DNA from: an uncultured Spirochaetales bacterium
GTDB taxonomy: Bacteria > Spirochaetota > Spirochaetia > DSM-27196 > DATKUC01
Assembly: GCA_964553615.1 (NCBI GenBank)
Contig: CAZKMA010000001.1
Coordinates: 95,592-159,591 of the forward strand
DNA: 64,000 nt
Direction of reading: 5' to 3'
Both the position numbers and the translations under genes were made by a program. This document shows positions 18,351 through 29,210 of the stretch, in pieces (the stretch's first letter is position 1; the number at the start of each line of letters is the position of its first letter). The notes beneath the pieces were generated by a model. It saw only the letters and a program-made list of their open reading frames with translations. It was not told the DNA's origin and searched no databases.

Positions 18351-20150
18351 TTACAGGAGATTGTTCGGTTGGGTTGGTGCCGTAATCTCGACTGTTTTTC
18401 CTGCCAGTTGTGAATCCTTGGAGCGAACCACAATTCGTATTGTAACGGTGTTCTGTTTGACGTTGTGCTTCCAATCTATCAGCCTGAACACATCCTGAGG
18501 TATGAGCCCCGTTTCGTCGGCGATGCTTCCCGGATAGACTCGTGACACCTGGAACAACCGCTGAAATGTTGATTTAACCGGTTTCGCGTCCATGCCGAAC
18601 AGTGCAGGGAAGAGCTCTTCCGGCTTCTGTGACTGTATGGCCGATGCAAGCGGTTTGAACTTTCTCGGCTCGGTTACCAGAAGTCCATCCATCGATTTGC
18701 CATTGTGCTTCCAGCTGATCGTGACGAGGCTCCGAACGGGGCGGGACACCAGGATATCCTGAGCGTCCTGGGTTTTCGTTACCGGGTGGCCGTCTATGCG
18801 GGAAATGACGTCGTTCTCCCGAATGCCCGCCGTATGCGCGGGGGAATCGGGAGCAACGTATGCCACGGTGAGACCGGTTTCAGTCTCCACCACTCCTGCG
18901 CCCATCCACGGAATGGGAACGTTCCCCGTTTCATAGAGTTCAGGAAGGAGTTTGCTGATCCAGTAAGAGGGAATTGCAAAGTTCACACCCTGAAACTTTG
19001 CAATTCCTGCAAAGACGATACCGACAACGTCGCCGTTCGAGTCGAGGAGGGGACCGCCGCTATTCCCCGGATTCACCGGTACATCCATCTGGATCTGATC
19101 CCCCATCTGCATGAAGCGTCTGCCGGTTGCAGACACTATGCCCGATGTCACGGTATTGTCGAGTCCACCGGGCGACCCCATGGCCACGACCGGGGTGCCC
19201 GCACGGAGTCCGTGTTTCTGCACGAACGAGAAGACATAGCTCGGTTTGATGTCCACTTTCAAGAGGGCCACATCGAAGATATGGCTGTACCCGACAACAT
19301 GAGCTGGATATTTCGTGCCTGGGTGATCCGCACGCTCCACGAAGAGTCGTGAATATCCTTTGTACTCGGGATCCACTTCGCTGCTGATTACATGGTAGTT
19401 CGTGATCAGGTATCCGCGTTTGTCAACGAAAAAACCGCTACCGATTACCGTGTCGGCATACCCGATGCCGTTCTGCATCTGAATTCCACGGTTTACAACG
19501 ATCGTAACCATTCCTTTCAGCATGGTCGACTGATCCACCTGAGCTTTGAGAAAGCGCGAGAAATCTGCGGGAACGGACTGTTTGAGCGACCTGAGGAGTG
19601 CAATGATCCGGGAAAGGCCCTCCCTGTCATTCAGTTCCATTGCAATCCTGCCGTATTTCTCGAGAAGCTTCTGATCCACAATGCCGTGCGGATGTTGAAT
19701 CCTGAGGAACAGAGAGAGCGCAGCAGGGTCATTTCCCATAGATAGATGCTTTTCCGCCGATTTGAGCCGCAATTCATCCATCGAAATTGTGCCGGTGGAT
19801 CGGGCAGCAGTCGGCAGCACGTTGCCGGAGTCCAGGGCTTCGAGCGAATGCAGATAGATCGATGCACGCGCGAACTCTTTCTGTTTCAGCGCCTCCTTGA
19901 GGTGGTCCTCCATCGCATGGATTCCGTCGGTCGTGTATTTTTCTATAGTCGTCGGAGGCAGTTCTCCGCTCCGGCGGTAACTTGCTATGAGCGGAAAAGC
20001 CTCCTGCGGGCTCGGGGATGAGACGAGTTTCTGCAGCTGTTCGGTCATGGATGCCGCAGTGATCGGAGGTGTCGACGCTATCTGCCGGACAGAAGCGCAG
20101 GAGAAGAGGACGAGAGTAGTTGCAACTATGATTGTAAGGCTCGGTTTCAT
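18351..20150 (-). CDS. Lipoprotein S1C (HtrA/DegP-like) serine protease with a helical N-terminal domain and a PDZ domain
   Basis: Lipobox MKPSLTIIVATTLVLFSC. The triad context is TNYHVI / DVALLKV / GNSGGPLL. A PDZ-like segment GIRENDVISRIDGHPV is present. AGGAG SD. Confidence 0.85.
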   Translation of the reverse strand: MKPSLTIIVATTLVLFSCASVRQIASTPPITAASMTEQLQKLVSSPSPQEAFPLIASYRRSGELPPTTIEKYTTDGIHAMEDHLKEALKQKEFARASIYLHSLEALDSGNVLPTAARSTGTISMDELRLKSAEKHLSMGNDPAALSLFLRIQHPHGIVDQKLLEKYGRIAMELNDREGLSRIIALLRSLKQSVPADFSRFLKAQVDQSTMLKGMVTIVVNRGIQMQNGIGYADTVIGSGFFVDKRGYLITNYHVISSEVDPEYKGYSRLFVERADHPGTKYPAHVVGYSHIFDVALLKVDIKPSYVFSFVQKHGLRAGTPVVAMGSPGGLDNTVTSGIVSATGRRFMQMGDQIQMDVPVNPGNSGGPLLDSNGDVVGIVFAGIAKFQGVNFAIPSYWISKLLPELYETGNVPIPWMGAGVVETETGLTVAYVAPDSPAHTAGIRENDVISRIDGHPVTKTQDAQDILVSRPVRSLVTISWKHNGKSMDGLLVTEPRKFKPLASAIQSQKPEELFPALFGMDAKPVKSTFQRLFQVSRVYPGSIADETGLIPQDVFRLIDWKHNVKQNTVTIRIVVRSKDSQLAGKTVEITAPTQPNNLL

Positions 20151-20208
20151 TGCGCTGCTCCTGTTCTACACATAATAAGATATTATCGTGCGTGCCGGCC
20201 ACCCCGAC

Positions 20209-20238
20209 TGAAGTATCAACACGGTTGTTGATACTTCA
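20209..20238. repeat. Perfect 13-bp-arm inverted repeat (TGAAGTATCAACA cggt TGTTGATACTTCA) in a divergent intergenic region
   Basis: Read directly from the sequence. There is no flanking T-run on either strand, so it is not a canonical terminator. Confidence 0.9.
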
Positions 20239-20342
20239 CAGGTGATTCGTCCCGTTGCCTCCGAGCGGACCCCCCGGACGGAACTGCATACCGCCGCAGG
20301 TTGTTTGTGCATCGATTATGTTCGCATTCTCCGCTGACCGGC

Positions 20343-20372
20343 TTGACAATATGCGTGCTATTTGGTTATATT
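20343..20372 (+). promoter_or_regulatory. Sigma-70-type promoter for the thioredoxin-like/permease operon, overlapped by a short inverted repeat
   Basis: TTGACA (20343-20348), 17/18 nt, TTATAT/TATATT (20366-20372). CAATAT (20347-20352) and ATATTG (20368-20373) form a 6-bp inverted repeat spanning the spacer. Confidence 0.6.
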
Positions 20373-20403
20373 GCCAATAAAGACAACAGTATGGAGGAAG
20401 ACT

Positions 20404-20643
20404 ATGACTATCCAGATTCTTGGAGGCGGATGCCCGAAGTGTCACGCACTCGAGCGCAATGCGCGCGAGGCGCTGTCTTTGCTTGGATTGGATGCGACGG
20501 TGGAGGCTGTGACCGATTCAGATCGGATCACGGATATGGGCGTCATGTTTACTCCTGCTCTGGCAATAGACGGAGTTGTAAAAAACGCCGGAAAAGTGCT
20601 GAGCGTTGACGACATCAGCGCCATCCTCTCCGACGCACGGTAA
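20404..20643 (+). CDS. Thioredoxin-fold 'redox-active disulfide protein 2' family protein
   Basis: Trimmed to MTIQILGGGCPKCHALERNAREAL... (CPKC motif; GGAGGAAG SD). About 79 aa, the typical size and sequence of this family. Confidence 0.82.
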   Translation: MTIQILGGGCPKCHALERNAREALSLLGLDATVEAVTDSDRITDMGVMFTPALAIDGVVKNAGKVLSVDDISAILSDAR

Positions 20644-20649
20644 TCCCCA

Positions 20650-21906
20650 ATGTCTACGGTACAGACTGAAGACTCGGCGGTGAAGCCGCCGAAGCGCGGT
20701 CAGGCCTTTTTTGTAAGCATGAAGTCTTTCTGGAAAAGCCGGAAAAACGTAACTCTCGCCATAATCGTGGGTGTGTTTCTTGCGGCATACTTCATACCGT
20801 TTTCCCAGCCCCGGGTGTCCATCGCGTTGAACGAGGCATTCCTCATGCTGGGAGACTACGCCAGGAGACATGTTCTCCTCTGCCTTGTACCGGCTTTCTT
20901 CATTGCCGGTGCAATAACGATGTTCCTGAATCAACAGGCGGTCATAAAGTATCTGGGCCCACAGGCGCGGAAGATAGTTGCGTACACGGTAGCCTCCGTG
21001 TCGGGGACCATTCTGGCGGTATGTTCCTGTACCGTTCTCCCGCTGTTCAAGGGGATTTACCGCAAGGGTGCGGGGCTTGGCCCTGCCGTGAGTTTCCTCT
21101 ATTCCGGGCCTGCAATTAACGTGCTCGCCATTGTTCTTACGGCGAATGTGCTGGGATTCAGACTCGGTGCTGCACGGGCAATCGGCGCCATTGTGTTCGC
21201 GTTCGTTATAGGGATTCTCATGCACATCATTTTCCGAAAAGACGACAATGCACGTACAACAAACGCGGCAATGTTCACAGCACCCGAAGATGCAGGGCGT
21301 CCGCTGTGGAAAACCACGGTATTCATGGGAAGCATGATCGGAATTCTGGTGTTTGTGAACTGGGCGCGTTCAGGCGGGTCGGTTGGTGGCTGGGACCTGG
21401 TGTATCGGCTGAAATATCCTATTACTGCGGTGTTCGGTGTTGTCCTCATCTTCTCACTGGTCCGATGGTTCGGTGCAGCGGAATTGACTGACTGGGTTCG
21501 AGCCACGAGGGACTTTGCCGTTCAGATACTGCCGCTTCTATTCGGCGGCGTGCTCGTAGCCGGATTTCTTCTCGGTCGGCCCGGTCACATGGCGCTGATT
21601 CCCGAGTCGTGGGTTGCAGCGGTCGTCGGAGGGAACTCTCTCTTTGCCAATCTCTTCGCAAGCGGCTCAGGAGCGCTGATGTATTTCGCAACGCTCACGG
21701 AGGTGCCGATTCTCCAGGGATTGATAGGTGCCGGCATGGGACAGGGACCGGCGCTTGCGCTTCTGCTTGCGGGGCCGTCGATGTCTTTACCGTCACTCCT
21801 GGTTATCGGAACCGAACTGGGGGCGAAGAAGACGCTTACATATGCAGGACTCGTCGTTGTTATGTCAACTCTGGTGGGTATGGCATACGGGACGATAGTC
21901 GGATGA
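20650..21906 (+). CDS. COG0701-type permease (ArsP-like) with a vicinal-cysteine CSC motif
   Basis: 418 aa and polytopic, with SGTILAVCSCTVLPLF in a TM helix. Pairing with the small thioredoxin-like protein is the usual context of this family. Confidence 0.75.
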   Translation: MSTVQTEDSAVKPPKRGQAFFVSMKSFWKSRKNVTLAIIVGVFLAAYFIPFSQPRVSIALNEAFLMLGDYARRHVLLCLVPAFFIAGAITMFLNQQAVIKYLGPQARKIVAYTVASVSGTILAVCSCTVLPLFKGIYRKGAGLGPAVSFLYSGPAINVLAIVLTANVLGFRLGAARAIGAIVFAFVIGILMHIIFRKDDNARTTNAAMFTAPEDAGRPLWKTTVFMGSMIGILVFVNWARSGGSVGGWDLVYRLKYPITAVFGVVLIFSLVRWFGAAELTDWVRATRDFAVQILPLLFGGVLVAGFLLGRPGHMALIPESWVAAVVGGNSLFANLFASGSGALMYFATLTEVPILQGLIGAGMGQGPALALLLAGPSMSLPSLLVIGTELGAKKTLTYAGLVVVMSTLVGMAYGTIVG

Positions 21907-21929
21907 TTTCAAGATAAGGGAGCACGGTA

Positions 21930-22958
21930 ATGAAGAAGATAATTGCGGGATTCAATCCCGCATGGGGCGCCGCCGTCATGGGCACAGGAGTCTTGAGCAT
22001 ACTTTCCGTTCAAGCGGGAGACGTATTTAAGATTCTTGCAATCGTTCTGTTCGGAATCAACGCCCTCATTCTGGTGTATTCGCTCGTTTGCTGGATTCTG
22101 ATGTGGTTCGTTGCACCAAAAAAGATCGAAGCGATCGTGAACAATGCATCCATGATCGTATTCCTGCCGACGGTCCCGATTGGATTGGTGGTGTTCGCGA
22201 GCAATCTGATGGCGCTGCGCGGGGATTACTTTCCCGGTCTCGGACTCGTGCTGCCGGCGGTACTCTGGATTGTGGCAAGTCTCGTAATAGTGGCACTGGC
22301 CGTCCACTTTCTGGACAGAATGTTCTCAAGCCCCGGGATCGAGATACAGCACTCAACATTCGGCTGGCTCATCCCCCCGGTTGCGTTGCTCGTTATTCCG
22401 CTTGGAGCCCCGGCAGTTGTCGGTGCATTTTCTCCTCCGGTTGCCGAGACTCTGGTCCTGTTCTCCTTTGCGAGTTGGGGAGCGGGTTTCTTTGCATACC
22501 TGTTCGTTAATGCGGCGGTTACTCACCGGTACTTCTTTCATGAGCTTCCGGTAAGTCAGATGACTCCGTCAGTCTGGGTCGGTCTGGGGCCACTTGGAGC
22601 AGGCGCCGCCGGACTCCTGTCGCTGACTCGGGTGGCAGATGGTATGAAAACGATGCAGGGTATAGGAAATATCAGTTTTGCGCTGGCGGTCCTCATGTGG
22701 GGGTTCGGCCTTATCTGGTATCTCGTCTCTCTGGTGTTGACAATGCGCAAGACAATCTTCGAACGGATTCCGTACACCATGGGGTGGTGGGCGTTCACCT
22801 TTCCGTTGGGTGCCTTTGCTCTGGCGACACGTCTTCTTGCGGTTCGCACGGGTATTGTGGCCATTGACGTCATCTTCTGGATCCTGTTTGCAAATCTGTG
22901 GGCGTTCTGGGTGATTACCGCGTACAGAACCGCCGCCTCCGTAGTCCGAAGCGCCTGA
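21930..22958 (+). CDS. TDT-family (TehA/Mae1/SLAC1-like) anion transporter
   Basis: 342 aa with about 10 TM segments. The N-terminus NPAWGAAVMGTGVLSIL and the C-terminus WWAFTFPLGAFALAT are patterns typical of the tellurite-resistance/dicarboxylate transporter family. Confidence 0.7.
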   Translation: MKKIIAGFNPAWGAAVMGTGVLSILSVQAGDVFKILAIVLFGINALILVYSLVCWILMWFVAPKKIEAIVNNASMIVFLPTVPIGLVVFASNLMALRGDYFPGLGLVLPAVLWIVASLVIVALAVHFLDRMFSSPGIEIQHSTFGWLIPPVALLVIPLGAPAVVGAFSPPVAETLVLFSFASWGAGFFAYLFVNAAVTHRYFFHELPVSQMTPSVWVGLGPLGAGAAGLLSLTRVADGMKTMQGIGNISFALAVLMWGFGLIWYLVSLVLTMRKTIFERIPYTMGWWAFTFPLGAFALATRLLAVRTGIVAIDVIFWILFANLWAFWVITAYRTAASVVRSA

Positions 22959-23199
22959 GCGTATCCCGACAGGCATCCGGCAGAATTGTGGCAACTGAAC
23001 CGGGAAAGTCTGCGGATGGTATTGTCAACGGAAGTAAGGTGCCGGCGCGTGGCGGAGTCGTTGTCACGCGTGGTGCGAATCGTGGAGAGACGACACAGTC
23101 TCCGCGCACGCGGATGGAGACCTTCCGGACCGTTCAGTACGTCTGCACCGACACAATGAGCCGGTACCGGAGCGCTCCTCCGATACCGGCCGCCTTGAA

Positions 23200-23355
23200 C
23201 TACTTTTTGTCTTCGTGCTGGTATTTTTTCGGGTTCGATTCAAACTCTTTCTTACACCCGGGCGCACAGAAATAGTAAGTCTTGCCTTCGTACTCGCTCG
23301 TCCACTTCGCCGTCTTCTCTTCCACTTCCATCTTGCATATAGGATCAATCGCCAT
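23200..23355 (-). CDS. YHS-domain (TRASH-type) small metal-binding protein
   Basis: Trimmed to MAIDPICKMEVEEKTAKWTSEYEGKTYYFCAPGCKKEFESNPKKYQ, the YHS signature DPxCxM...YYFCxxxCxxxF. GGAGGAAAAAG lies immediately upstream. Confidence 0.85.
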   Translation of the reverse strand: MAIDPICKMEVEEKTAKWTSEYEGKTYYFCAPGCKKEFESNPKKYQHEDKK

Positions 23356-23758
23356 CTTTTTCCTCCAATGGAGAATCGCTTTTCGTCTCCTCGATTGCCC
23401 GTGAGACGATTTCGGGAAATTCATACCACACGACTCCGTTGCTGCTTACATCCATTCTCACATGCGTCCCGTCCGACATGGCCTGAAGCAGTTTCTCCGC
23501 TTCCTCGCTCGGAAGTCCGGTATCGATGATCAACTCCGAAACGGTGAGTCTTCCGCCGTGTTTCTGGGCAACGCGGTAGATTGCGGCCTCCGGCACCGAT
23601 TCGTTCCGGGTATTCTGAGGAAATTGATCACTCCCAACCTGGCGCCGTCTCAACCGGTGCATGAGGGCAGACATCCCGTAGATCAGGAGCGGCAGGAATA
23701 TCCAGCCGAAGTCCGGCGGAAACATGACCGAATGCATCATCATGGGTGTCACGTTCAT
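23345..23758 (-). CDS. Hypothetical single-pass membrane protein with a small cytoplasmic alpha/beta (winged-helix-like) domain
   Basis: 137 aa with one TM segment (FGWIFLPLLIYGMSALM) followed by RRRQ. The C-terminal pattern GGRLTVSELIIDTGLPSEEAEKLLQAMSDGTHVRMDVSSNGVVWYEF looks wHTH-like. Its 3' end overlaps the YHS start by 11 nt. Confidence 0.55.
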   Translation of the reverse strand: MNVTPMMMHSVMFPPDFGWIFLPLLIYGMSALMHRLRRRQVGSDQFPQNTRNESVPEAAIYRVAQKHGGRLTVSELIIDTGLPSEEAEKLLQAMSDGTHVRMDVSSNGVVWYEFPEIVSRAIEETKSDSPLEEKDGD

Positions 23759-23820
23759 AAGTTACTATACCCCCGTAGCGTATGTCAATATGAGTTGACC
23801 CAGGAACTGCCGGATACCGG

Positions 23821-25089
23821 TCATGTTTCGTCGTTCACCGGGACTGGCTGGGTCTTGCGGACGACGGCAAATATGGCTGCTATCCCTACGAGGACTGAAA
23901 CTGCAACGAGGCCGTTGGCGAGTCCGAAGCGGTCCGCAAAGAAGCCGAGAGCCACCGCTACGAGCGCAGCCACAATAGTCTCCACCTGCGACTCGGCCGA
24001 GAGAGCAGTGGCAAGGATATCGGATCGCATCTTGTCGCTGACGTAGGAGATTCCGATCGGCTTTCTCAGGTTTTCGATCAGATATATGCCGACATAGAGG
24101 ATGACTGCGCCAACGGTGGACCCGAGCGCGTAGAGTATTCCCGCGCCGATGCCGAGCACCGGCCCGATGAACATCGTAATGTTCAACGGATACTCGAGAG
24201 ACTTGAAACGTTCGGTGAAACCACCTGCCGAACGGGAGGCGAGGGATGTAAGGACGTAGATGAGCGAATAGACCACGCCAACAACGATTGCAGTCCGTTT
24301 CTGGGCACTCACCACGGTCAGAATTGGAATGGCGAGCGCCAGGCTTTTCAGGAGTGGCTGCAGGAAGTCTTTCGCCGCCTTGTAATACCCGGTGTAGAGT
24401 GCGAGGTTGAGTATGGACTTCAACAGGCTCCGGTCTCTGAAAGAGTAGGCAAAGTCCTTGACCACTGAGGTGAACTGGGAAACGAACTTCTTTCCGCTCA
24501 CGCTTCGCCGGGTGCCGTCCAATTCCCGGGGATAGGTCAGCATGAGTGTCAGATCAAGCAGATAGGGGATTATCGAGAACAGGAATATGGAGGCGTAACG
24601 TCCTCGGAAGAACACGAGCCCCATGGCAATCAACGCCGACAGGGCCGAACCCATCTGCGACCATGAGCGCGTGTGGCCGTAGTAGTGCACCTTCTGGTCG
24701 GTCCATCCGTTTATCCGCAGATACTCGAAGATCATCGCCTTGTGCGTGCCTGTCCTGAAGGCTTCTCCAAAAGAGAAGAGCACCATGGCTGCAACAAAGA
24801 TTGCGAACTGCCCGGAGAGGTAAAAGACGGCAAAGGAGACAATGTAGGAGCCGAAAGAGAAGACCATAGTCCGCCGGCGCCCGAGGGAATCGGCCGCAAC
24901 GCCGGTCGGAATCTCGAGAATATTGGTTGCGATCTCCTTGATGGCGTACAGCGTACCGATTTCGAGGTAGGACAATCCCTTTTCAAGGAAGAACAGTATA
25001 AGGAACGGCTCGAAGAATCGGAGGTTCTTCAGGAAACCATACACGCAGAACTTGTAGTATTGAAGGTCGCGGATGAATCGGTCTGCCAT
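23821..25089 (-). CDS. MFS transporter
   Basis: About 12 TM segments and the MFS loop motif AADSLGRRRTMVF. The start is taken at ATG 25089 (MADRFIRD...). The ORF-track TTG at 25098 overlaps a candidate -10 element. Confidence 0.8.
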   Translation of the reverse strand: MADRFIRDLQYYKFCVYGFLKNLRFFEPFLILFFLEKGLSYLEIGTLYAIKEIATNILEIPTGVAADSLGRRRTMVFSFGSYIVSFAVFYLSGQFAIFVAAMVLFSFGEAFRTGTHKAMIFEYLRINGWTDQKVHYYGHTRSWSQMGSALSALIAMGLVFFRGRYASIFLFSIIPYLLDLTLMLTYPRELDGTRRSVSGKKFVSQFTSVVKDFAYSFRDRSLLKSILNLALYTGYYKAAKDFLQPLLKSLALAIPILTVVSAQKRTAIVVGVVYSLIYVLTSLASRSAGGFTERFKSLEYPLNITMFIGPVLGIGAGILYALGSTVGAVILYVGIYLIENLRKPIGISYVSDKMRSDILATALSAESQVETIVAALVAVALGFFADRFGLANGLVAVSVLVGIAAIFAVVRKTQPVPVNDET

Positions 25090-25173
25090 GATATGCAACT
25101 ATCTCACCAAAAATGAAATCGCGCAACACGAATTACGGCATATGCCGACGCTGCAGACCCGCGCGCTTGACAT

Positions 25174-25198
25174 ATAATACCCTGGTAGGGTATATTAC
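25174..25198. promoter_or_regulatory. CsoR-type operator (ATACCCT-ggt-AGGGTAT) embedded in the csoR / MFS divergent promoter region
   Basis: TATAATACCCTGGTAGGGTATATTA has perfect 7-bp arms at 25178-25184 / 25188-25194. It lies between TTGACA (25168-25173) and TATATT (25192-25197), 4 nt before the csoR ATG. Confidence 0.65.
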
Positions 25199-25201
25199 CC
25201 C

Positions 25202-25483
25202 ATGGACCAGCGACATACAGAGAAGACTCTCGCGCGTTTGCGACGGATTGAAGGTCAGATCCGCGGGATTCACAAGATGCTTGAAGAGGACCGGTACTGC
25301 GTTGATATCCTTACCCAGACAAGCGCTGTCATTGCCGCGCTGCACGGCGTGGAAGACCTCGTCATGGAAAACCATCTGAATACCTGTGTCGCAGATGCCA
25401 TGAAGAGCAACGATCCGGATGAGAAACGGGAGAAGATCGATGAGGTCATGACCGTAATAACGAAGTTTCGCAAGCACGGATAG
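25202..25483 (+). CDS. csoR: CsoR/RcnR-family metal-sensing repressor with the Cu(I)-type x-C-H-C ligand fingerprint
   Basis: TLARLRRIEGQIRGIHKMLEEDRYCVDILTQ...ENHLNTCV. The Cys in RYC plus H-x3-C gives the CsoR copper-sensor pattern. 93 aa. Confidence 0.88.
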   Translation: MDQRHTEKTLARLRRIEGQIRGIHKMLEEDRYCVDILTQTSAVIAALHGVEDLVMENHLNTCVADAMKSNDPDEKREKIDEVMTVITKFRKHG

Positions 25484-25627
25484 GAGGCAACGGAGGAGTT
25501 GTTCACTCCGAATGCCTTTCGTGAAAAGGAACACGTCCGGCCGATCTGACCTGACGTGTTCCTGAAAGCGCGACGGTATGAGAGCCTCCTGAACCGATCC
25601 GCGGTTGATGAGCTCTTGCCGAAGGGC

Positions 25628-26170
25628 CTAATTGCCCAGCTGTCGCAAGAATGAACTCAGGTGATTTCTGCTACCCGCCTCCAGATTGCTGAAGACAGCG
25701 AGGATATCGGTCTTGTCTGTACGTGAACTTGCCGCCTGCAGGTCGCTGATGTCCAGTTCTTCGATGAGTTTCCCGACATTCAATGCCGACTCGATGCTGC
25801 CCGAACCCTGATCCACCAGGCGGGTGTAGAGTTCCTGAAGCGCCGGATCAGTAAACACGCCGCGATCTGCCGCAGGATAGGGAAGCCCGTAACTATCCAG
25901 TAGAGCGAGTATTCTGTCCATGTGCTGCTGTTCACTCTGGGCAATATTCGCAAAAATCTTCAGATTCCAGTTTTCATAAAGCGCCAGGTATACATCCCGT
26001 GCGAGCTTTTCTTCCTCACTCATGTACCGAAGGTCGGTCAATTCTGTCGGTGAGAGTGCACTTGCCGACACTGTTGTTTCGGCCGAAAGTTGCGGAAGCG
26101 ACAGCGGCATGACCGCGAGTAAGAGTCCGAAGGTCAGAATGGACATCGCCCTTGTCATCGATTTTTTCAT
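25628..26170 (-). CDS. Secreted DUF2202-type ferritin-like protein
   Basis: Trimmed to MKKSMTRAMSILTFGLLLAVMPLSL... (GAAGGAG SD). LRYMSEEEKLARDVYLALYENWNLKIFANIAQSEQQHMD is characteristic of DUF2202. Confidence 0.7.
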   Translation of the reverse strand: MKKSMTRAMSILTFGLLLAVMPLSLPQLSAETTVSASALSPTELTDLRYMSEEEKLARDVYLALYENWNLKIFANIAQSEQQHMDRILALLDSYGLPYPAADRGVFTDPALQELYTRLVDQGSGSIESALNVGKLIEELDISDLQAASSRTDKTDILAVFSNLEAGSRNHLSSFLRQLGN

Positions 26171-26289
26171 TTTTTTCTCCTTCTGTCTGTGACATCTACA
26201 CATTAGCAAGAAGCGGGCCAAGATCCGAGCGTTCTGGGGCCGGAGGCGGCACGCGATTCAATGGGGTCGGGGTAATGAGTTCCTGTCCG

Positions 26290-26634
26290 CTACAGGTGGG
26301 AAATATTTGCTCGCTGTGGGAGCCCGGATCCCGCGGGTCGGGATTCGGGGCGCGTGGTTTCTTCGAGCATGGTGAGATAGGCGAAAGCTTCAGCATCGGT
26401 GTTGCCGCACATCTCCTGCGACGGGTTCAGGTTCGTACAGGCAGCCGGGCGTTCGGGTTTCTCGAATAGCCTGCACAAGTTATTGTCGGTGAGCTGGACA
26501 CAGCGGACCCCTGCGGGCTTGCCCACCGGCCGTCCATTCACGATGGTTGGCTCCATACCGGGGATGGGAGAGGAAATTGAAATCACAATGCAGCATGCGC
26601 CGCAGCCGGGTCTGCACCTCATTGGTACAGTCAA
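26290..26634 (-). CDS. YkgJ-family cysteine-cluster (putative Zn/Fe-chelating) protein
   Basis: N-terminal CRPGCGACC cluster plus downstream C...C residues. About 110 aa. The start is TTG 26634 or ATG 26622. Confidence 0.65.
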   Translation of the reverse strand: MTVPMRCRPGCGACCIVISISSPIPGMEPTIVNGRPVGKPAGVRCVQLTDNNLCRLFEKPERPAACTNLNPSQEMCGNTDAEAFAYLTMLEETTRPESRPAGSGLPQRANISHL

Positions 26635-26786
26635 CCGGGGAATCTGATCTCGGTCAAGTGTTCTTTCCGTCGGGCGTGAGTCCAGGCGGGCTACCCACAG
26701 CAGTTGCAGTATCTGCCATTCCCGGTCCCGAACGGCACGGATTCCGTCGACTCGATGTGCACGCTGACCGCGTCTTCGAGTCCGAG

Positions 26787-28499
26787 TTACCGTACCTTCG
26801 GCACCAGCGCAACGAGCTCGCCTGCGTTGACCCCGGCCGCGGCATGAACGGCATCCTGGACGCTCCGGGCCATCGATACAAACATGTCCGGATGCGCTTT
26901 CACGTATTCGCCCAGGGCAGCGTTCTTGAAGTCCAAGTCCTTCGACAACGACGCGAGCACTCTGCCGCGATAGTATTTTTTTACTTCGTCGACGCGTTGC
27001 TGCATGAGGTATGCCTGGAACTCGTTGATGACCAGATAGTCATCTTTGGCGTTGTATTCGCGACGTCCCAGGAAGATCCGAAAAAACTTCTGTTGCTGGG
27101 CGGGAAGCGCGTTCCATATCCTGTGGACTGCATCACGGTAGCCGGGATGCGTGAAATAGATGCCGTGGTAGCCTTCATGGGTCAGCAGAATGTAGCGCAA
27201 CCAGTAGGGGTCATTCTGTGAAAAACCGATGATTGCACCCTTTCCAGCTGCGAATCCGTCCGCCGTGCGGACAATGATGCCATTTGCGACAAGGATGTCC
27301 TGAAGCGAGATTTCTTCGGGATTCAACGGGAAATGCTGACTCTGCGCCATCGTGAAGAATGCCGCGAGGTCTTTCGGCCGGTAGTCGTGGGCGTTCCAGC
27401 CGTGGAGCGGGGATATTACGTAGTTTGGCCAGAGTTTTCCCGCATAGCCCGCCTTCTCGACGAAGTATGCGAGTCGCTTGAGATATTTCGATTGAACAGC
27501 GAGGGTTCGAAAGTCAAACACAAGAACCGACGGAGCGAGGCTCCACGAGAAAACCTCGTAGTCTTTCTGTCTCCAATGATCGGGGGAGTAGGTCAGGATG
27601 GTTCCGAAGTTCGCGGGAACGGGGCTCGATCCTCCGCCGAATGGTCTGGCTTCTACCGACTCGACACTGAATCCGGAAGCCGCCGAGACGAGAGTGATCT
27701 GTTCCGGATTTATTCCGACGCTTGCAGTGTAAAAATAGAGTGTGTGATTGCCGTCCTGCGGATAGAGGGAGAACTGGCGCGTGTTCGTCCCATCTCCCAC
27801 CGTTATGTGTATGTCCGCTCCCGAGCCCGAATAGGAGTATTTCAGCGCGAGCTGTGCCTGACCGGTTCCAAGGCCCTTGAGCAGCTTCGCGAAAGAGAGC
27901 TCATAGGTCGTCTGTGAACCGTCCAGGCTTTCCTTTAGTCCTACGCCGTCCCTGATGAGCAGGTTGCCGGTACCGAGGCGGACGCCGGGATAGTCCGGTA
28001 CGAGTGCAGCAGCATGCACGTGGACCGTAGCGTTCTGATCCGTACTGGTAATGCGGAACTTGTTGACGTCGGTGCCGTCCGGAAGTGGCAGCAGAAAGGT
28101 GACCGGTTCGGGTTTGCTGAGAACCGGAAGGATTGCGGTCATCTCACGGCTCTGCTTGGTCTGCGGATCCGTGAGGAAGACGTGAAGGGCGATGGCTGAC
28201 CCCTGTGCCGTGTAGGTCAGGGAAAAGCTCTTTGTCCGGTTGGCAACGGCCACCGGCTGTTTCAAGCCGAATAGCGCGGTTCGTAGCCCATCAGTCGTGC
28301 CAGGCAGGAACTCGCCCTGCGCTCCTTTCGGAACACGCGAATCTGCGTTGAGCGCAACCATCCGGCCGCCTGCTTCGAATGTAAAATCCTGCACAGGATG
28401 CGCGCACCCGAGCACCGTAGCAGAAACCAGAATCGCCGTGAGGAGAAGGCGAAAAAACACGCGGTAGCGTTTACTATGAAGACTGTCTGTACGTGTCAC
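26787..28499 (-). CDS. Hypothetical lipoprotein with a C-terminal HExxH motif (candidate metallopeptidase)
   Basis: The ORF starts at GTG 28499 or 28460, giving ...RYRVFFRLLLTAILVSATVLGC|AHP (lipobox). The C-terminal region contains LLTHEGYHGIYF (HEGYH) followed by NEFQAYL. I recognise no family. Confidence 0.55.
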   Translation of the reverse strand: MTRTDSLHSKRYRVFFRLLLTAILVSATVLGCAHPVQDFTFEAGGRMVALNADSRVPKGAQGEFLPGTTDGLRTALFGLKQPVAVANRTKSFSLTYTAQGSAIALHVFLTDPQTKQSREMTAILPVLSKPEPVTFLLPLPDGTDVNKFRITSTDQNATVHVHAAALVPDYPGVRLGTGNLLIRDGVGLKESLDGSQTTYELSFAKLLKGLGTGQAQLALKYSYSGSGADIHITVGDGTNTRQFSLYPQDGNHTLYFYTASVGINPEQITLVSAASGFSVESVEARPFGGGSSPVPANFGTILTYSPDHWRQKDYEVFSWSLAPSVLVFDFRTLAVQSKYLKRLAYFVEKAGYAGKLWPNYVISPLHGWNAHDYRPKDLAAFFTMAQSQHFPLNPEEISLQDILVANGIIVRTADGFAAGKGAIIGFSQNDPYWLRYILLTHEGYHGIYFTHPGYRDAVHRIWNALPAQQQKFFRIFLGRREYNAKDDYLVINEFQAYLMQQRVDEVKKYYRGRVLASLSKDLDFKNAALGEYVKAHPDMFVSMARSVQDAVHAAAGVNAGELVALVPKVR

Positions 28500-28667
28500 G
28501 CACGCGATGGTATCACAACCGGCACACCCGGCGTAAGGCCCCGAACGTGCAAGAATGAAGGGTGTGTTGCACTGCAACCGCTCTGCCCGGCAATATATTT
28601 GAAGAGAGGTCAGTTGAGTAATCTGCAGGGGCCTGGGACTCGTACTATTCCGGGAGAAGGAGTTTCA

Positions 28668-29210
28668 ATGTTCGGCATTGTGTTATCGCGGATACGCGTT
28701 GGAGCGGCTGCACTGGTGTTCATTCTTCTTTCTGCGGCAGCTGCGGCAGCCGCGCCGGCGGGTCATGTCGACTGGTTGAAACCCTCAGACGGCCCCTATC
28801 CGGTCCTGCATCCGGGCGATCCGATCTCCATCCATGTTTCGATCTCCCGCCAGCGGGTGTATATCATGCGCGGCAAGCGGGTGATATACACCATGACCGC
28901 GTCCACCGGACTGGAAAATCCGAAGGACGACGCGACACCGCAGGGCGTGTTCTATATCCAGCGCGAGCGCGGGCTTTCATTCTATGCACCATCCGAACAC
29001 GAAGGCGCGCGCTACTGGGTGTCGTGGCTTCATCACGGCGAATACCTGTTTCATTCAGTGCCAGTGAATCGAAACGGGGAAATTATCCGGAGCGAGGCTG
29101 AAAAGCTCGGTCGCGAGGCATCGCATGGCTGCGTTCGGCTTACGGTTCCCGATGCACGCTGGTTTTACCGTCATATTCCCTATCACACCAAGGTGGTTAT
29201 CGGGCAATAG
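28668..29210 (+). CDS. L,D-transpeptidase (YkuD domain)
   Basis: Trimmed to ATG 28668 (GGAGAAGGAG SD) with a signal peptide. The catalytic motif is HGCVRL, preceded by YLFHSVP. Confidence 0.88.
   Translation: MFGIVLSRIRVGAAALVFILLSAAAAAAAPAGHVDWLKPSDGPYPVLHPGDPISIHVSISRQRVYIMRGKRVIYTMTASTGLENPKDDATPQGVFYIQRERGLSFYAPSEHEGARYWVSWLHHGEYLFHSVPVNRNGEIIRSEAEKLGREASHGCVRLTVPDARWFYRHIPYHTKVVIGQ

Follow-up and report, generated by a model that had tools for sequence, protein, structure and literature searches.

In the 64-kb stretch of contig CAZKMA010000001.1 analysed here (hereafter the window), which derives from an uncultured Spirochaetales bacterium, a gene encoding a CsoR-family repressor lies divergent from three minus-strand genes. 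These encode a major facilitator superfamily (MFS) transporter, a single-pass membrane protein with a winged-helix domain (hereafter TM) and a 51-aa YHS protein. A first-pass annotation, made from the sequence without database searches, had treated the three genes as a single operon, driven by one CsoR operator in the divergent region and built on the MFS transporter. Our results point instead to two CsoR-controlled units, namely an autoregulated csoR and a separately promoted TM-YHS pair, with the MFS gene as a bystander between them, and we consider this arrangement the probable one. The proposal draws directly on the sequence features of the locus, on the family assignments, on the conservation of a CsoR box and of the TM-YHS pair in relatives, and on the absence of any comparable linkage of the MFS gene elsewhere.

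A copper-type CsoR and its two predicted operators

The product of csoR is a clear member of the PF02583 family (Trns_repr_metal; E=1.5e-31, 109.1 bits against a cut-off of 22.8), and among solved structures it comes closest to the copper CsoRs from Geobacillus thermodenitrificans (4M1P, 5e-19) and from Streptomyces lividans (4ADZ, 6e-17). The Cu(I)-type ligand fingerprint described by the first-pass annotation is borne out by this comparison: in the alignment, C33 (within RYC, and thus preceded by Y32), H58 and C62 (the H-x3-C pair) fall on the Cu(I)-ligand positions of 4M1P and 4ADZ, in an x-C-H-C pattern. Additionally, R12-L13-R14-R15, on helix alpha-1 as read from the sequence, reproduces the RLXR DNA-binding motif defined for CsoR (PMC3902906).

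CsoR-family members with similar ligand sets do sense nickel, and InrS matches the query at 8e-13. In addition, distant TM clades adjoin HypA-like and Mrp-like genes and the NCBIfam RicR match falls below its cut-off. These points would suit a protein that senses nickel (as InrS) or persulfide (as CstR), with TM-YHS handling that species. Against this stand the ligand set with its preceding tyrosine and the RLXR motif, the copper CsoRs as closest solved relatives, the match of the operators to copper-CsoR sites, and the finding that CsoR orthologues 71-72% identical to the one studied here adjoin copA (with two HMA domains), genes for CopB-type ATPases and one for a CopZ-like protein. We therefore regard a non-copper sensor as improbable.

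Published CsoR operators consist of 5'-TAC-N9-GTA-3' around G/C tracts; the consensus in Streptomyces is ATATACCCCTNAGGGGTATAT (PMC3902906). Two sites in the window, O1 and O2, are of this type, carry G/C tracts and overlap a predicted promoter. O1, ATACCCTGGTAGGGTAT, is the perfect 7-3-7 palindrome that the first-pass annotation had noticed in a divergent region of about 100 bp; it is present as described, fits the canonical operator and is unique in the window, and the csoR/MFS intergenic region measures 103 bp (25099-25201). O2, which had been overlooked, has the minus-strand sequence ATACGCTACGGGGGTAT (plus strand ATACCCCCGTAGCGTAT) and falls in the 62 bp that separate the MFS gene from TM. 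A palindrome search and a search for the TAC-N9-GTA core return the same two sites and no other in the 64 kb; allowing up to two mismatches, the palindrome pattern was observed twice against an expectation of 0.07. An inverted-repeat scan with a minimum length of 12 reported neither box, their arms being 6-7 nt, and both were found by pattern search and reading.

Short GC-rich palindromes do arise at random, and a 10-base core with one mismatch occurred at least twice in 16 of 100 shuffles. The full 14-base sites, on the other hand, both lie exactly within promoter spacers beside start codons, the longer pattern has the low expectation given above, and O2 is conserved across distant orthologous loci. 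We accordingly attach hardly any weight to the reading that both boxes arose by chance and regulate nothing.

O1 fills the spacer of a predicted csoR promoter, TTGACA-N18-TATATT, and overlaps its -10 element. This promoter agrees with the consensus at 11 of 12 positions and is the sole promoter-like site in 22900-25700. The csoR ATG follows TATATT by 5 nt; it lacks a Shine-Dalgarno sequence, and the reading frame offers no earlier start than 25202, so that the mRNA is probably leaderless. Since O1 is located between the -35 and -10 elements of csoR's own promoter, it fits autoregulation first of all, and this is the most likely role we can assign to it from its position.

O2 has an equivalent placement. 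It begins at the last base of a minus-strand TTGACA and fills the 18-nt spacer of what may be the promoter of TM, TTGACA-N18-TAACTT; like csoR, the TM gene has little or no leader. The TTGAcA element is invariant or nearly so across the aligned upstream regions of six orthologues, and a conserved block, TTGACATAC-N-CTACGGGGGTAT, stands in the same register upstream of the closest TM orthologues with diverged flanks. An O2-like box together with TTGACA is kept upstream of TM orthologues from other Spirochaetota whose proteins share 38-50% identity, and the box is conserved in register at loci L001, L089-L093, L096, L113/L116 and L150-L152, as well as before the copB-TM operon of L148. The background, scored with a stricter box definition, is 3 boxes per 814 kb of unrelated loci. 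Given this conservation and the low background, TM, here in the form of TM-YHS, would belong to the predicted CsoR regulon as a conserved component and have an operator of its own. The same evidence, a conserved box and TTGACA directly upstream of TM-YHS, indicates that the three minus-strand genes do not form just a single operon controlled from a single site.

Genomic context of the TM-YHS pair and of the MFS gene

The closest TM orthologues (42-50% identity; L001-L006 and L089-L094) adjoin a gene for a 51-aa YHS protein. The 11-nt overlap of the TM and YHS genes (23345-23355), reported by the first-pass annotation and found again here, recurs wherever the genes have been called (L001-L006 and L089); at L090-L094 the adjacency was seen by tblastn, and at L095 the pair is present without overlap. 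In most of L001-L006 and L089-L094 a CxxCxxCC-domain gene lies upstream, and neither csoR nor an MFS gene is near TM-YHS at any of them.

Other TM orthologues sit within recognizable copper loci. L096 combines csoR-copA (two HMA domains and a CPC motif in CopA), TM, a cupredoxin-like gene and a gene for a CopB-type ATPase (CPH motif, His-rich N-terminus), with three boxes, one each before csoR-copA, TM and copB. At L113 and L116, a csoR whose product is 71% identical to that of the window is divergent from TM-copB with one box per promoter, and a CopZ-like gene follows csoR. The CsoR proteins of L096 and L113 are 71-72% identical to the window's, and the adjoining copper ATPases pass TIGR01511. 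At L152, csoR is again divergent from TM, with two boxes, one per promoter. In L148 (Spirochaeta dissipatitropha) an operon copB-TM-DUF305 lies behind TTGACATACCCTATAGGGGTATATTAT, and variants of the box precede TM in L150 and L151. As TM orthologues occur beside csoR and copper P-type ATPases, the system probably complements an ATPase encoded elsewhere in the genome, rather than representing a replacement of the ATPase by an MFS transporter.

Two side observations concern these loci. At L150 (3725-4615) one gene encodes an ABC-transporter ATPase to which a YHS domain is fused; a gene for an FtsX-like permease accompanies it, and the nearby TM homologue has two CsoR-type boxes upstream. In L113 (3786-4139) the CopZ-like HMA protein encoded downstream of csoR bears a C-terminal 'LDCC motif' mini metal-binding domain (NF040898).

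The MFS gene behaves differently from the pair. Its product matches MFS_1 (49.2 bits, cut-off 33.4) and belongs to a family of at least 4,495 proteins at E<1e-3, present at at least 592 genome loci and 50-60% identical across Bacteroidota, Desulfobacterota, Spirochaetota, Chlorobiota and Thermotogota. In the 80 orthologous loci retrieved, no homologue of csoR, TM or YHS occurs within 6 kb of the MFS gene, and the 400 nt upstream of it contain no GC-rich TAC-N9-GTA box; the conserved linkage to csoR, boxes or metal genes that would mark a metal-efflux transporter under CsoR is thus lacking in this set. The closest orthologues (68-73% identity) sit among sugar-related or unrelated genes, and recurrent neighbours elsewhere are LacI-type regulators, TsaD, YdjC and ABC components. 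In GCA_964577375.1, the closest metagenome-assembled genome carrying both, an MFS gene whose product is 73% identical is found on contig 44 and TM-YHS on contig 2. The gene order in relatives is CxxC-TM-YHS and in the window CxxC-DUF2202-csoR-MFS-TM-YHS, a difference that makes the DUF2202-csoR-MFS block look like a lineage-specific insertion or rearrangement. From this comparative evidence, the MFS gene is probably a lineage-specific neighbour and not the core of a conserved module.

At 25136-25147, 38-58 bp upstream of the MFS start, lies another perfect palindrome, CGGCATATGCCG, of 12 bp, which is not the CsoR box; its exact match is unique in the window, and it may be the site of another regulator of the MFS gene or a product of chance. 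An Rfam scan of 19000-29000 returned nothing credible, including no riboswitch upstream of the MFS gene.

These observations bear on the earlier proposal that one CsoR operator in the divergent region drives MFS-TM-YHS and that the MFS protein, as exporter, replaces CopA. The three genes are indeed co-oriented, with the 62-bp gap followed by the 11-nt overlap and no terminator-like site after the MFS gene, O1 does lie within the shared intergenic region, and the window has no P-type ATPase. In this last regard, motif scans over all six frames of the window detected neither the DKTGT motif of P-type ATPases nor the [GS]MxCxxC motif of CopZ, and all open reading frames (ORFs) are shorter than 600 aa, which agrees with the absence of both proteins stated in the first-pass annotation. 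However, O1 is part of csoR's own promoter and the minus strand of 22900-25700 yielded no promoter-like site, a second conserved operator with TTGACA precedes TM, and relatives with csoR divergent from the regulated gene, including TM, have a box at each promoter, whereas in the window's intergenic region the MFS gene has no such box on its side. Moreover, the MFS orthologues show no linkage to csoR, YHS or boxes at any of the 80 loci, and TM orthologues are linked to CopA and CopB ATPases. We consider the single MFS-based operon unlikely. What stands of the earlier idea of a CsoR-linked metal module is the TM-YHS pair without an adjacent copA or copZ; its supposed MFS core does not. The regulator and its operators have every CsoR property that can be tested computationally, and the locus lacks the adjacency to copZA: adjacent genes for a P1B-type ATPase and an HMA chaperone are absent from the window and present at the orthologous loci L096 and L113.

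Several points weigh against the arrangement of two CsoR-controlled units that we favour. As a -10 element for TM-YHS, TAACTT is weak, with 3 of 6 positions in agreement. The search for a terminator downstream of the MFS gene gave none, which leaves room for read-through from it or for co-transcription of the three genes. O1 lies some 80-95 bp from the MFS start and might also act on an unrecognised divergent MFS promoter. No clear box was seen upstream of TM at L095 and L149, and the wider TM family occurs also in non-metal contexts without boxes. Regulation of the locus by CsoR is a prediction, copper is only the presumed metal of YHS, and a docking function of TM is purely our inference. 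Finally, neither copA nor copB occurs in the 64-kb window, the sole part of the genome examined, and the exporter that we expect would be encoded elsewhere.

Table 1. Coordinates of the genes and predicted regulatory sites in the window.
Feature	Position	Strand	Description
csoR	25202-25483	+	PF02583 match, 93 aa
O1 operator (predicted)	25177-25193	.	ATACCCTGGTAGGGTAT, TAC-N9-GTA core 25178-25192
csoR promoter (predicted)	25167-25196	+	TTGACA-N18-TATATT
MFS gene	23821-25098, alternative ATG start 25089	-	MFS_1 match
O2 operator (predicted)	23767-23783	.	core 23768-23782
Putative TM-YHS promoter	23759-23788	-	TTGACA 23788-23783, candidate -10 TAACTT 23764-23759
TM gene	23345-23758	-	137 aa, no Pfam/NCBIfam match
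YHS gene	23200-23355	-	PF04945 match, 51 aa

Beyond the features of Table 1, the surroundings hold several further genes. A plus-strand cluster (20362-22958) encoding a Thioredoxin_3 small redox protein, an ArsP_1 permease and a SLAC1/TehA-type channel separates the YHS gene from HtrA-GGDEF-TatD genes. In the relative L001 the GGDEF and TatD genes directly follow YHS, so that the cluster looks like an inserted metalloid/anion-resistance cassette. On the other side, within 25628-26634, a DUF2202 (ferritin-like) gene whose product has a signal-peptide-like N-terminus is convergent with csoR. Upstream of it lies a CxxCxxCC (PF03692) gene, the conserved upstream neighbour of TM-YHS in relatives. 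A minus-strand ORF at 26787-28577 (596 aa) has no Pfam match.

The TM and YHS proteins and a proposed mechanism

The gene identities given in the first-pass annotation (an MFS transporter, a single-pass membrane protein with a winged helix and a 51-aa YHS protein) were confirmed by domain matches and an AlphaFold2 model. TM itself matches no Pfam or NCBIfam family, and a word-indexed homologue search gave only three matches; an exhaustive HMMER profile search revealed a family of 724 cluster representatives at E<1e-3 (204 at E<1e-10). Its members are of about 110-140 aa and of a single architecture, all are named "hypothetical", and the organisms, where named, are Spirochaetota. A 57-sequence alignment served to build the AlphaFold2 model and was too diverse for the locus scan, for which a 13-sequence subset was used. 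The model has a mean predicted local distance difference test score of 86 (95-97 in the domain), and places a transmembrane helix at residues 15-40 and a winged helix, in the order H-b-H-H-b-b, at residues 57-113, followed by a C-terminal helix. The basic juxtamembrane stretch RLRRRQ implies that the N-terminus is outside and the C-terminus inside.

A winged helix predicted with this confidence, whose nearest solved folds include the metal-responsive repressors of the ArsR/SmtB, MarR and CadC types, and a Met/His-rich N-terminus limited to the copper-linked clade would be expected of a membrane-tethered transcription factor or one-component sensor, in which the periplasmic tail senses copper and the winged helix binds DNA. 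The Foldseek matches against the PDB are nevertheless generic winged-helix proteins only, at E ~1e-2, and extend to TFE-alpha and ESCRT-II. Furthermore, over 238 members, the domain is acidic (mean net charge -4.2), as is the helix at the 'recognition' position (the helix-3 region, -2.9), and there is no conserved basic wing. TM has neither a basic or polar recognition helix nor membership of a known helix-turn-helix family, and cysteine is almost never found in the domain. The acidic domain, its acidic recognition helix and the near-absence of cysteine argue against both direct DNA binding and thiolate metal binding and favour a protein-interaction module; that TM is a tethered regulator seems to us quite unlikely.

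The orthologue alignment begins at M7, and the true start of TM is probably ATGATGATG at 23743-23735, giving the Met/His-rich N-terminus MMMHSVM or MMHSVM. N-termini of this kind are found in copper-linked members (those of the window, L096, L113 and L148), and clades beside HypA-like, Mrp-like, NifS-like or housekeeping genes have MFFFF... N-termini and lack boxes. This correlation between a Met/His N-terminus and the copper-linked clade is suggestive only. We also considered an ATCUN-like (amino-terminal Cu(II)- and Ni(II)-binding) or Met-motif role for the MMH N-terminus and set it aside as a lead only: His3 is present in just 38 of 244 family members, though it tracks the copper-linked clade.

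Distant members with MFFFF-type N-termini, at L104, L107, L109, L110, L117 and L122 (also L111, L120 and L142), precede genes for a HypA-like zinc-finger protein and an Mrp/NBP35-like P-loop ATPase, with a gap of 12-23 nt in five loci, and a NifS-like cysteine desulfurase gene lies upstream of some distant members. This context suggests that the TM family may be linked more broadly to metal-centre assembly.

The YHS protein is a confident PF04945 match (E=2e-16, 60.1 bits, cut-off 30.3), carries the cysteine triad C7-x22-C30-x3-C34 (pattern C-x19-22-C-x3-C) and is 73-80% identical in relatives. Its Shine-Dalgarno sequence, GGAGG at 23366-23362, lies 6 nt before the ATG and inside the end of the TM gene. 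A strong Shine-Dalgarno for YHS next to a near-leaderless TM suggests that an abundant soluble binder with three cysteines and a scarcer membrane partner are made together. An apparent TM-YHS fusion of 174 aa on a JGI contig of 952 bp (P0002), 90% identical to the window protein, was rejected as a natural fusion. It changes to the alternative frame within ...DVS|RTESCGMNFPKSS..., which indicates a frameshift or assembly error.

These data allow us to propose a model for the two CsoR-controlled units, in which repression and derepression, copper specificity, the interaction of TM with YHS and an exporter encoded elsewhere are inferred. In this model, apo-CsoR would occupy both O1 and O2 and block RNA polymerase at the two promoters, and the binding of Cu(I) at C33, H58 and C62 would free CsoR from both sites. 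The cell would then produce the 51-aa cytoplasmic Cys3 metal binder of the YHS/TRASH type together with the translationally coupled membrane protein TM. The latter may serve as the membrane-docking or hand-over partner of YHS, and in relatives it might be the direct partner of CopB-type ATPases or DUF305. Copper bound to YHS would be passed to the exporter encoded elsewhere in the genome. The MFS protein would be a widely conserved transporter of an unrelated substrate whose gene has come to lie between csoR and TM-YHS in this lineage.

In a more far-reaching version, which we put forward tentatively and hold to be possible without thinking it likely, TM would be an undescribed component of copper homeostasis, mainly in Spirochaetota. 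As a core member of the CsoR regulon, with its periplasmic Met/His tail and with an acidic winged helix that docks or regulates interchangeable partners (YHS, CopB-type ATPases, DUF305), it could act as a transmembrane adaptor or sensor linking periplasmic copper to cytoplasmic trafficking.

Comparison with known copper systems

CsoR regulons are usually described as csoR with copZ-copA. The present locus, together with its relatives, suggests a further member that has escaped annotation and is found repeatedly in Spirochaetota. If this is correct, a family of several hundred proteins now called "hypothetical" could be given a function, the stand-alone YHS proteins of bacteria would be placed in a physiological setting, and a testable membrane docking partner would be at hand for a copper carrier that is neither HMA nor cupredoxin. 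As a word of caution, the MFS gene, to which the locus owes its unusual look, is probably an accidental neighbour. A literature search linking CsoR to YHS proteins, to Spirochaetota or to the TM family found nothing relevant.

The CsoR-copZA regulons of Firmicutes and Actinobacteria (Bacillus subtilis, S. lividans, Mycobacterium tuberculosis) share with this locus a Cu(I)-type CsoR with C-H-C ligands and RLXR. Their operators, too, are of the TAC-N9-GTA type with G/C tracts and lie across promoters; CsoR controls its own gene, and a genome has several such sites (PMC3902906). Here, in contrast, the predicted regulated unit is not copZ-copA: it encodes a winged-helix protein anchored in the membrane and a free-standing YHS protein, and no gene for an ATPase or HMA chaperone lies within the 64 kb.

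In archaeal cop clusters, a CopR/CopT regulator combines a helix-turn-helix with TRASH, and a small TRASH protein, CopM/CopT, acts as chaperone (PMC7830388). The likeness lies in a small stand-alone Cys3 protein of the TRASH/YHS type that is co-regulated with copper defence, here by prediction, and in a winged-helix module encoded beside it (PMC7830388). In the archaeal clusters, however, a soluble DNA-binding regulator unites the helix-turn-helix with TRASH in one protein, and CopA is part of the cluster, whereas the winged helix of the present locus is membrane-anchored, acidic and a separate polypeptide, and the regulator is CsoR.

YHS modules are also known at the N-terminus of copper P-type ATPases and in a mycobacterial adenylyl cyclase, where copper binding or sensing has been proposed (PMC4626032). 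The domain is the same, PF04945 with its cysteine triad, but here it constitutes a free 51-aa protein. In this regard, the ATPases linked to TM (L096, L113 and L148) have His-rich or HMA N-termini, and a regular-expression scan for YHS gave no match in L096 or L113.

A further parallel is CupA of Streptococcus pneumoniae, a membrane-anchored copper chaperone encoded in the copY-cupA-copA operon. CupA has a single N-terminal transmembrane anchor and a cytoplasmic domain of cupredoxin fold with Cys and Met copper ligands, and its gene stands beside that for the copper ATPase under a copper repressor. TM resembles it in the single N-terminal anchor with a cytoplasmic domain and, in relatives, in the neighbouring copper ATPase and copper repressor; it differs in being a Cys-free winged helix, so that any copper binding would come from the partner YHS or from the periplasmic Met/His tail. 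None of the systems compared (the archaeal cop clusters, CupA, and the YHS domains of ATPases and cyclase) matches the architecture described here, and the new element appears, from the loci gathered above, to be the TM family itself as a recurrent member of the CsoR regulon, with a partner that differs between loci: a free YHS protein, CopB-type ATPases or DUF305.

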